A stretch of 64,000 bases of DNA from Bacteroidota bacterium (lineage in GTDB: Bacteria > Bacteroidota > Bacteroidia > 2-12-FULL-35-15), in contig CANIFU010000007.1 in assembly GCA_947466965.1 (NCBI GenBank), forward strand, positions 2,249 through 66,248, read 5' to 3'. The notes beneath the pieces are model-generated. The model saw only the letters and a program-made list of their open reading frames with translations. It did no database searches and was not told the DNA's origin. Shown piece by piece: positions 36,929 to 38,456 of the stretch (within the stretch, counting starts at the first letter, position 1; the number at the start of each line of letters is the position of its first letter). Made by a program: the position numbers and the translations under genes.

Positions 36929-36932
36929 ATAA

Positions 36933-36965
36933 AAAACTCCGAAAGCAATTTCGGAGTTTTTATTA
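36933..36965 (+). terminator. rho-independent terminator after alaS
   Basis: AAAAAACTCCGAAAGCAATTTCGGAGTTTTTATT. Confidence 0.85.
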
Positions 36966-37076
36966 TTGTATATTGATTTTTAATCATTTTATTTAAAATC
37001 ACTAAATCACATTTTAATCCTATTTAAATGACTTTTATTTCTTTTTATTCTTACTTATATTTGTAAAAAAAAACGC

Positions 37077-38456
37077 ATGAAAAAAATTAATTATTTCTTT
37101 GCTACGATTTTATTCTTTTTAACATTTATATTAAATGCGCAGCCCTATCAAATTGGTCATACCCAAATAACATATGCCGATCCTTCAAGAGGTGGACGAA
37201 ATATTCAAACGGAGATATATTATCCTACAATTACAGCGGGTACAAGTGTGCCTGTTTCTTCCGGAATGTTTCCTCTTATTGTTTTTGGACATGGTTTTGT
37301 AATGACATGGGATGCGTATCAAAATATATGGGAAAATCTTGTTCCCCAAGGTTATGTAGTTGCTTTCCCCCGAACAGAGGGAAGTATTAGTCCTGTTCAT
37401 GCCGAGTTTGGAAAAGATCTTACGTTTTTAATCACAAAGTTGCAAAGTGAAAGTGCTGTAAATGTGGCGTCCCTGTTCTATAATCATATTAATACAAAAT
37501 CAGCGATTATGGGTCACTCGATGGGAGGCGGAAGTGCATTTTTGGGTGCAGAAAGCAATCTGAATATCACAACGCTGGTAACCTTTGCCGCTGCAAATAC
37601 AACTCCCTCTTCAATTTCAGCTGCGCATAATGTCTCGATTCCTTCACTTGTATTTGCGGGAGAAAATGATTGTGTTGCTCCGCCAGCGGTACATCAAATT
37701 CCTATGTATGATTCGCTGGGGACACTTTGTAAAGCATTTATCAAGATCAAAGGAGGAGCACATTGCGAATTTGCAAACTCTAATTTTAATTGTACATTTG
37801 GTCAATTAACCTGCACACCAACACCAACAATTACTCGAACACAGCAACAAGATGTTGCATCAGATTTTCTGAAACTTTGGTTGGAATATTATTTAAAAGA
37901 TAATTGTAATTCCTGGGATGTATTCAATGACTCATTAGCTGTTTCTCCTCGCATTACTCAAAATCAATCTTGTACAATTGTTGATCCGGTAATCTCGCTT
38001 TCTGGTTCATTGCTAACATCAACACCTGCATCAACCTATCAATGGTATTTCAATGGATCGATTATTTCGGGAGCAACCTCTCAAAATTATACGGCTTTAT
38101 CGGCAGGTAATTATTACGTGGAAGTAACGTATTTCAATGGCTGTCCATATCTTTCGAATACCATAAATGTTTTTCCGACGAATGTTTTAAGTATTGGATC
38201 TAGTGATGGATTTAGCGTTTTCCCAAATCCTACGAATGAAAATCTGACAATTCTTTTTTCAGCCGAATCAACTGGTTTAATTACAATTCGACTTTCGAAT
38301 TTGATTGGAGAAATTATTTTTGAGAACTCGTTCTTTGGGATAGGAATTCAAAACCAAACTCAACCATTGTCTCTTTCAGATTTTAACAGTGGGGTTTATT
38401 TTATTGAGATAAGTTCAAGTAAAAGTAAATATGTAGAAAAAATAATAAAGCAATAA
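37077..38456 (+). CDS. secreted alpha/beta-hydrolase of the cutinase/PETase-like (dienelactone-hydrolase-fold) esterase type, with T9SS C-terminal sorting domain
   Basis: Signal peptide. YYPT oxyanion-region motif, nucleophile elbow GHSMGGG (Ser codon 37518..37520), ENDCVAP (Asp) and GGAHCEF (His), collinear with Ideonella PETase motifs YYPT / GWSMGGG / ENDSIAP / GGSHSC. C-terminus (FSVFPNPTNENLTILF...GVYFIEISSSKSKYVEKIIKQ) is a Por/T9SS CTD. Confidence 0.75.
   Translation: MKKINYFFATILFFLTFILNAQPYQIGHTQITYADPSRGGRNIQTEIYYPTITAGTSVPVSSGMFPLIVFGHGFVMTWDAYQNIWENLVPQGYVVAFPRTEGSISPVHAEFGKDLTFLITKLQSESAVNVASLFYNHINTKSAIMGHSMGGGSAFLGAESNLNITTLVTFAAANTTPSSISAAHNVSIPSLVFAGENDCVAPPAVHQIPMYDSLGTLCKAFIKIKGGAHCEFANSNFNCTFGQLTCTPTPTITRTQQQDVASDFLKLWLEYYLKDNCNSWDVFNDSLAVSPRITQNQSCTIVDPVISLSGSLLTSTPASTYQWYFNGSIISGATSQNYTALSAGNYYVEVTYFNGCPYLSNTINVFPTNVLSIGSSDGFSVFPNPTNENLTILFSAESTGLITIRLSNLIGEIIFENSFFGIGIQNQTQPLSLSDFNSGVYFIEISSSKSKYVEKIIKQ

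Follow-up and report, generated by a model that had tools for sequence, protein, structure and literature searches.

A predicted T9SS-secreted serine esterase of the PETase family from a large Bacteroidota subfamily

Introduction

Whether a gene that looks like a PETase gene encodes a polyester-degrading enzyme is the question raised by one open reading frame in a 64,000-nucleotide stretch of Bacteroidota DNA (hereafter, the window). The protein passes the family model and carries eye-catching motifs, yet is without the aromatic clamp and the disulfide of the Ideonella sakaiensis PETase (IsPETase). 'PETase' calls made from sequence are in wide use as evidence that environmental microbes can potentially degrade plastics, and characterization of the subfamily to which this protein belongs would decide whether the proteins that hundreds of freshwater Bacteroidota species secrete are polyester-active enzymes or of another kind. 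Here, we report an analysis of the gene, its genomic setting, the domain architecture and conservation of its product, and the activities that these features make more or less probable.

Results

A separate gene among housekeeping genes

The gene and its upstream boundary are marked by three features:

37077..38456, plus strand: the whole open reading frame, ATG to stop, 459 amino acids and the stop codon; encodes a predicted T9SS-secreted PETase-family serine esterase
36932..36961, plus strand: terminator-like hairpin of 13 pairs followed by a T-run, downstream of alaS and dividing it from the esterase gene
37056..37063, plus strand: putative promoter -7 box, TATATTTG, found by pattern search as a match to TAnnTTTG; ends 14 nt before the ATG

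The opposite strand of the reading frame is full of stops. TAnnTTTG is the -7 box consensus of Bacteroidetes sigma-A promoters, and TATATTTG may serve as such a promoter element. The esterase gene is thus set off by an upstream terminator-like site and a putative -7 box of its own. The upstream gene is alaS (Pfam tRNA-synt_2c), and it and the other neighbors, namely, those for an M23 peptidase, uracil-DNA glycosylase (UDG), bacilliredoxin (BrxC), OsmC and lipoyl synthase (lipA), are housekeeping genes; no polysaccharide-utilization or lipid locus was found among them. Synteny with UDG, BrxC, OsmC and lipA is retained only in the closest relatives and therefore reflects lineage, not function. 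Horizontal transfer was rejected, given the GC content of the gene (36.3% vs 35.4% in the window) and the synteny conserved in relatives.

Four modules and a type A sorting domain

The AF2 model of the protein (pLDDT 92.2) has four modules, with the following boundaries in the DNA:

37077..37139, plus strand: probable Sec signal peptide, residues 1-21, MKKINYFFATILFFLTFILNA, followed by Q; positive N-terminus and 16-residue hydrophobic core
37140..37973, plus strand: alpha/beta-hydrolase catalytic domain, residues 22-299, with HGF at 72-74, GHSMG at 146-150, Ala173 and a post-His insertion at about 230-252
37974..38174, plus strand: Ig-like beta-sandwich domain, residues 300-366; AF2 beta strands at 306-365, pLDDT about 90-97
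38211..38453, plus strand: T9SS type A C-terminal sorting domain (CTD), residues 379-459; PF18962, TIGR04183, seven beta strands in the model

The N-terminus consists of MKK, a 16-residue hydrophobic stretch and LNA ahead of the predicted cleavage site, with a modeled helix at 2-19, and Gln22, the +1 residue of that site, is conserved in at least 90% of the homologues. At the extreme C-terminus, residues 381-459 score above the cut-offs of both PF18962 (Por_Secre_tail, 47.6 bits, cut-off 27) and TIGR04183 (44.6 bits, cut-off 23), so the Por/T9SS domain that the sequence-only reading had seen fused to the hydrolase is real. That reading had described a hydrolase core and a CTD and had overlooked the Ig-like domain between them, which has the motif YQW..G..I.GA..Q.......G.Y.VEV....C...S and only weak, below-threshold matches to Pfam PKD, Ig_7 and Ig_2. 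A low-confidence linker (369-375) lies between the Ig-like domain and the CTD. The modeled seven-strand beta sandwich of the CTD agrees with the published description of type A CTDs, which are PorV-dependent and cleaved (PMC10202324). No paralogues of the esterase were detected within the 64-kb window, where matches are limited to the CTDs of two other cargo proteins; the presence of these two further CTD-bearing proteins suggests that the organism uses T9SS.

A PETase-family catalytic core

The catalytic residues map to three short segments:

37518..37520, plus strand: codon of Ser148, the nucleophile in GHSMGGG; aligned to IsPETase S160, invariant in 230 and 151 homologues
37668..37673, plus strand: codons of Asp198, the triad acid, aligned to IsPETase D206, and of Cys199, with a predicted disulfide to Cys246
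37761..37814, plus strand: codons of His229, the triad base, aligned to IsPETase H237, and of Cys230, Cys239 and Cys246; start of a 19-residue insertion

The core had been described from sequence as polyester-hydrolase-like, and this description stands. Residues 46-238 match the PETase/cutinase-like Pfam family of Ser-Asp-His alpha/beta hydrolases (PETase, PF12740) far beyond chance (E 4e-20, 72.7 bits vs a cut-off of 28), and precomputed assignments place essentially all homologues in the same family. All the motifs that had been listed are present and collinear with those of IsPETase (YYPT, 48-51; GHSMGGG, 146-152; ENDCVAP, 196-202; GGAHCEF, 226-232), and the Cys-rich string GGAHCEFANSNFNCTFGQLTC is present at 226-246. 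Pairwise BLASTP against an IsPETase sequence, the matched stretches of which agree with the PDB chains, yielded a single 44-residue local match, so that profile methods were needed for residue mapping. A phmmer search of the PDB retrieved IsPETase chains at about E 5e-16, with YYPT, the nucleophile elbow, ENDxxAP and GGxH falling on their IsPETase counterparts, so the proposed alignment to IsPETase bears out both the motifs and the triad. The position given earlier for the nucleophile, Ser148, is correct, and Asp198 and His229 are located in ENDCVAP and GGAHCEF, respectively. No variation in the triad, the HG motif or GHSMG is seen among 230 close homologues or in a set of 151 sequences comprising 150 representatives of 50%-identity clusters and the query. 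Foldseek with the AF2 model found IsPETase structures as top matches (TM about 0.8 on the target), and the best solved structural neighbors are PET-active esterases, the Bacteroidota enzyme PET30 among them. Identity to any characterized enzyme is only 17-24%.

A large subfamily with its own hallmarks

At E<=1e-30, the subfamily comprises 642 clusters at 50% identity, from more than 520 species genomes. Its members are mostly found in metagenome-assembled genomes (MAGs) from lakes, groundwater and wastewater, including those of Fluviicola and Crocinitomicaceae. The hallmarks are the HGF motif, which is invariant, an invariant His-Cys-x8-Cys, a 19-residue insertion after the catalytic His229, which is specific to the subfamily, and an Ala where PET hydrolases have their aromatic clamp. 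The segment from His to Trp268 accordingly spans 40 amino acids here vs 21 in IsPETase.

Cysteine covariation suggests how this region might be held together. C199 and C246 are jointly present or jointly absent in 230 of 230 sequences (p 4e-68), with about half of the homologues lacking both, and C218 and C299 co-vary perfectly (p 1e-17). C277 of the catalytic domain is missing only in homologues without the Ig-like domain; a bond between C277 and Cys356, which the Ig-like domain carries, is probable. C230 and C239, invariant in 230 and 151 sequences, are paired by elimination. Up to four disulfides are thus predicted (C199-C246, C218-C299, C277-C356 and C230-C239), two of which would flank the active site, with cysteines at Asp+1 (C199) and His+1 (C230).

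Discussion

Polyesterase, lipase or another esterase

The gene is an ordinary secreted hydrolase gene among housekeeping genes, and its product is a real member of the PETase family. We consider it probable that the protein is an extracellular PETase/cutinase-like serine carboxylesterase of a large Bacteroidota subfamily, with aliphatic or lipid-type esters as the expected substrates and weak activity on PET at most. The expectation on substrates follows from the invariant Ala in place of the clamp together with the disulfide-stapled 19-residue insertion.

Under this reading, the Sec signal peptide (1-21) would direct the protein to the periplasm, with cleavage exposing Gln22; the catalytic domain would fold there, forming up to four disulfides, and T9SS would then recognize the type A CTD (379-459) and pass the protein across the outer membrane. 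The CTD would subsequently be cut off and the enzyme either released or kept on the cell surface. In catalysis, Ser148 would act as the nucleophile, His229 as the base and Asp198 as the acid, and the oxyanion hole would be built from two backbone NH groups, that of Met149 and that of Phe74 in the HGF motif. The substrate would be an ester, natural aliphatic or lipid-type, and possibly an aliphatic polyester (PCL or cutin-like material, for example), with PET hydrolyzed weakly and promiscuously, if at all.

A bolder version, which we advance tentatively and regard as unlikely on balance, is that the subfamily constitutes an esterase class functionally distinct from PETase and cutinase, defined by HGF, the fixed-length insertion, the His-Cys-x8-Cys staple on the catalytic His loop and the Ala at the clamp position, and acting on a natural substrate such as an aliphatic biopolyester, the lipids of algae, or esters of waxes or pigments. 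If so, it would be conserved, exported through T9SS and involved in the turnover of organic matter in freshwater.

That the protein is a genuine extracellular polyesterase, one that binds and depolymerizes PET or cutin as do IsPETase, LCC, PET27 and PET30 and whose catalytic loops are stabilized by a disulfide at the active site, appears improbable, even though the best Pfam family, PDB sequence and fold matches are all to PET-active enzymes. The same searches put the identity to such enzymes at only 19-24%, and the NCBIfam equivalog for the bis(hydroxyethyl) terephthalate hydrolase BdeA (NF051441) scores 60.9 bits, under its cut-off of 520. Of the 'F-M-W/Y' binding motif described for PET esterases of Bacteroidota (PMC8767016), Phe74 and Met149 fit the first two residues; the third is the clamp residue, for which the PET-active enzymes tabulated in the same work have Trp or Tyr. 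The position of the corresponding IsPETase residue, W185, is Ala173 here by phmmer, with no gap from the nucleophile to Ala173, and a gap by hhalign and MAFFT, so that the alignment in this region is ambiguous and the third residue is either missing or an invariant Ala. Position 173 is Ala in 230 of 230 close homologues and in 146 of 151 sequences of the wider set; the loop 171-181 has no aromatic residue in 148 of the 151, the query included. In IsPETase, the W185A variant retains about 5% activity (Joo et al. 2018, tabulated in PMC8669999). Two nearly invariant phenylalanines of the insertion, Phe232 and Phe241, might conceivably restore an aromatic subsite.

The sequence-only reading had also suggested a PETase-like extra disulfide near the active site. 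Disulfides are indeed predicted there, and the covariation that places one between Asp198+1 and the post-His segment is in line with a polyesterase; the location, however, is not homologous. In type IIb PETases, DS1 joins Asp-3 (C203) and His+2 (C239) in the scheme of Joo et al. (2018), positions occupied here by Gly195 and Glu231, and the C199/C246 pair is the one that about half of the homologues lack altogether. At His147 and His206 the protein agrees with type I cutinases, and NCBI gives a 45.5%-identical relative a PETase-family name. Against this stand PET28 and PET29, which are far nearer to PET27 and already without PET activity, and the F-M-A candidate PET38, which was inactive, though poorly expressed (PMC8767016). 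Overall, polyesterase activity is possible, judging from the sequence, but a dedicated PETase role and PET activity beyond the promiscuous are both unlikely. With no counterpart here to the aromatic clamp, on which known PET-degrading enzymes depend, the label 'plastic degrader' is premature.

We regard as distinctly improbable that the protein is a secreted lipase, phospholipase or chlorophyllase-like enzyme acting on detritus of algae or bacteria (its lipids, its wax esters or the phytol esters of chlorophyll) and having no polyester role. Such detritus lipids would be expected substrates for freshwater particle-associated Bacteroidota, and the provenance of the family from lake, groundwater and wastewater MAGs fits. 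An HGF oxyanion motif is of the chlorophyllase/PAF-AH type, the PETase type being PGY, and HGF is invariant in the subfamily. The best PDB sequence matches include the Streptomyces exfoliatus lipase 1JFR, and PAF-AH_p_II and Lipase_3 match weakly. The match to Pfam Chlorophyllase (PF07224) reaches 36.4 bits (cut-off 26), but is restricted to residues 57-165 and has half the PETase score. Furthermore, the catalytic domain, at about 278 residues, has no lid domain of PAF-AH size, lipid- or pigment-related neighbors are absent, and no sequence feature separates the substrate classes. A true dienelactone hydrolase can be rejected: the nucleophile of ClcD-type enzymes (EC 3.1.1.45) is Cys, that of this protein is Ser148, and the match to PF01738 is marginal (23.5 bits vs 21).

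Comparison with known enzymes

IsPETase (type IIb, e.g., 6EQE), the best Foldseek match at 19-21% identity, shares with the query the collinear series YYPT, G-x-S-M-G-G-G, E-N-D-x-x-A-P and G-G-x-H. Its type IIb subsite II residues W159 and S238 are replaced by His147 and Cys230, and its Y87 by Phe74 within the HGF motif. Unlike IsPETase, the query has 19 extra residues after the catalytic His, an Ig-like domain and a CTD. Plasma PAF-acetylhydrolase/Lp-PLA2 (5I8P) and plant chlorophyllase (8FJD), at 17% identity, are structurally almost as close, but their Pfam families score lower and match in part, and these eukaryotic enzymes have different insertions and no T9SS context.

That PET-active Bacteroidota esterases with PorC domains had been reported, as the sequence-only reading stated, is borne out by PET30 (Kaistella jeonii, PDB 7PZJ) and PET27 (Aequorivita sp.), described by Zhang et al. 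(2022, PMC8767016) as PET-active esterases that carry a PorC/T9SS domain. Their identity to the query is only 23%. The clamp is Trp or Tyr in PET27 and PET30 and Ala173 in the query; the elbow is of the GWSMG type (W152 in PET30) as opposed to GHSMG; there is one disulfide, compared with four predicted here; and both enzymes lack the 19-residue post-His insertion and the Ig-like domain, with a C-terminal extension of about 100 amino acids instead of about 160-170.

A closer counterpart appears to be PET38 of Fluviicola taffensis (WP_083800582.1), a protein of 447 amino acids with a PorC domain, a 168-amino-acid C-terminal extension and an 'F-M-A' motif, which was produced at very low levels in Escherichia coli and showed no activity (PMC8767016). 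Because it was barely expressed, its inactivity is uninformative. The F-M-A motif and architecture of PET38, compared by description only, match the invariant F74-M149-A173 and the architecture of the subfamily, and we infer that PET38 belongs to it; its accession is not named among the best 120 matches of homologue searches seeded with Fluviicola and Crocinitomicaceae members. Four disulfides, as predicted for the query, would account for the failed expression of PET38 in E. coli.

The 45.5%-identical relative mentioned above, WP_258541727.1 of the cultured marine flavobacterium Parvicella tangerina, aligns over the full length of the query and has the same subfamily features and architecture, with the C199/C246 pair absent (a G/S variant). 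It is named both 'poly(ethylene terephthalate) hydrolase family protein' and 'T9SS type A sorting domain-containing protein', which shows that automated annotation already places the subfamily under the PETase family.

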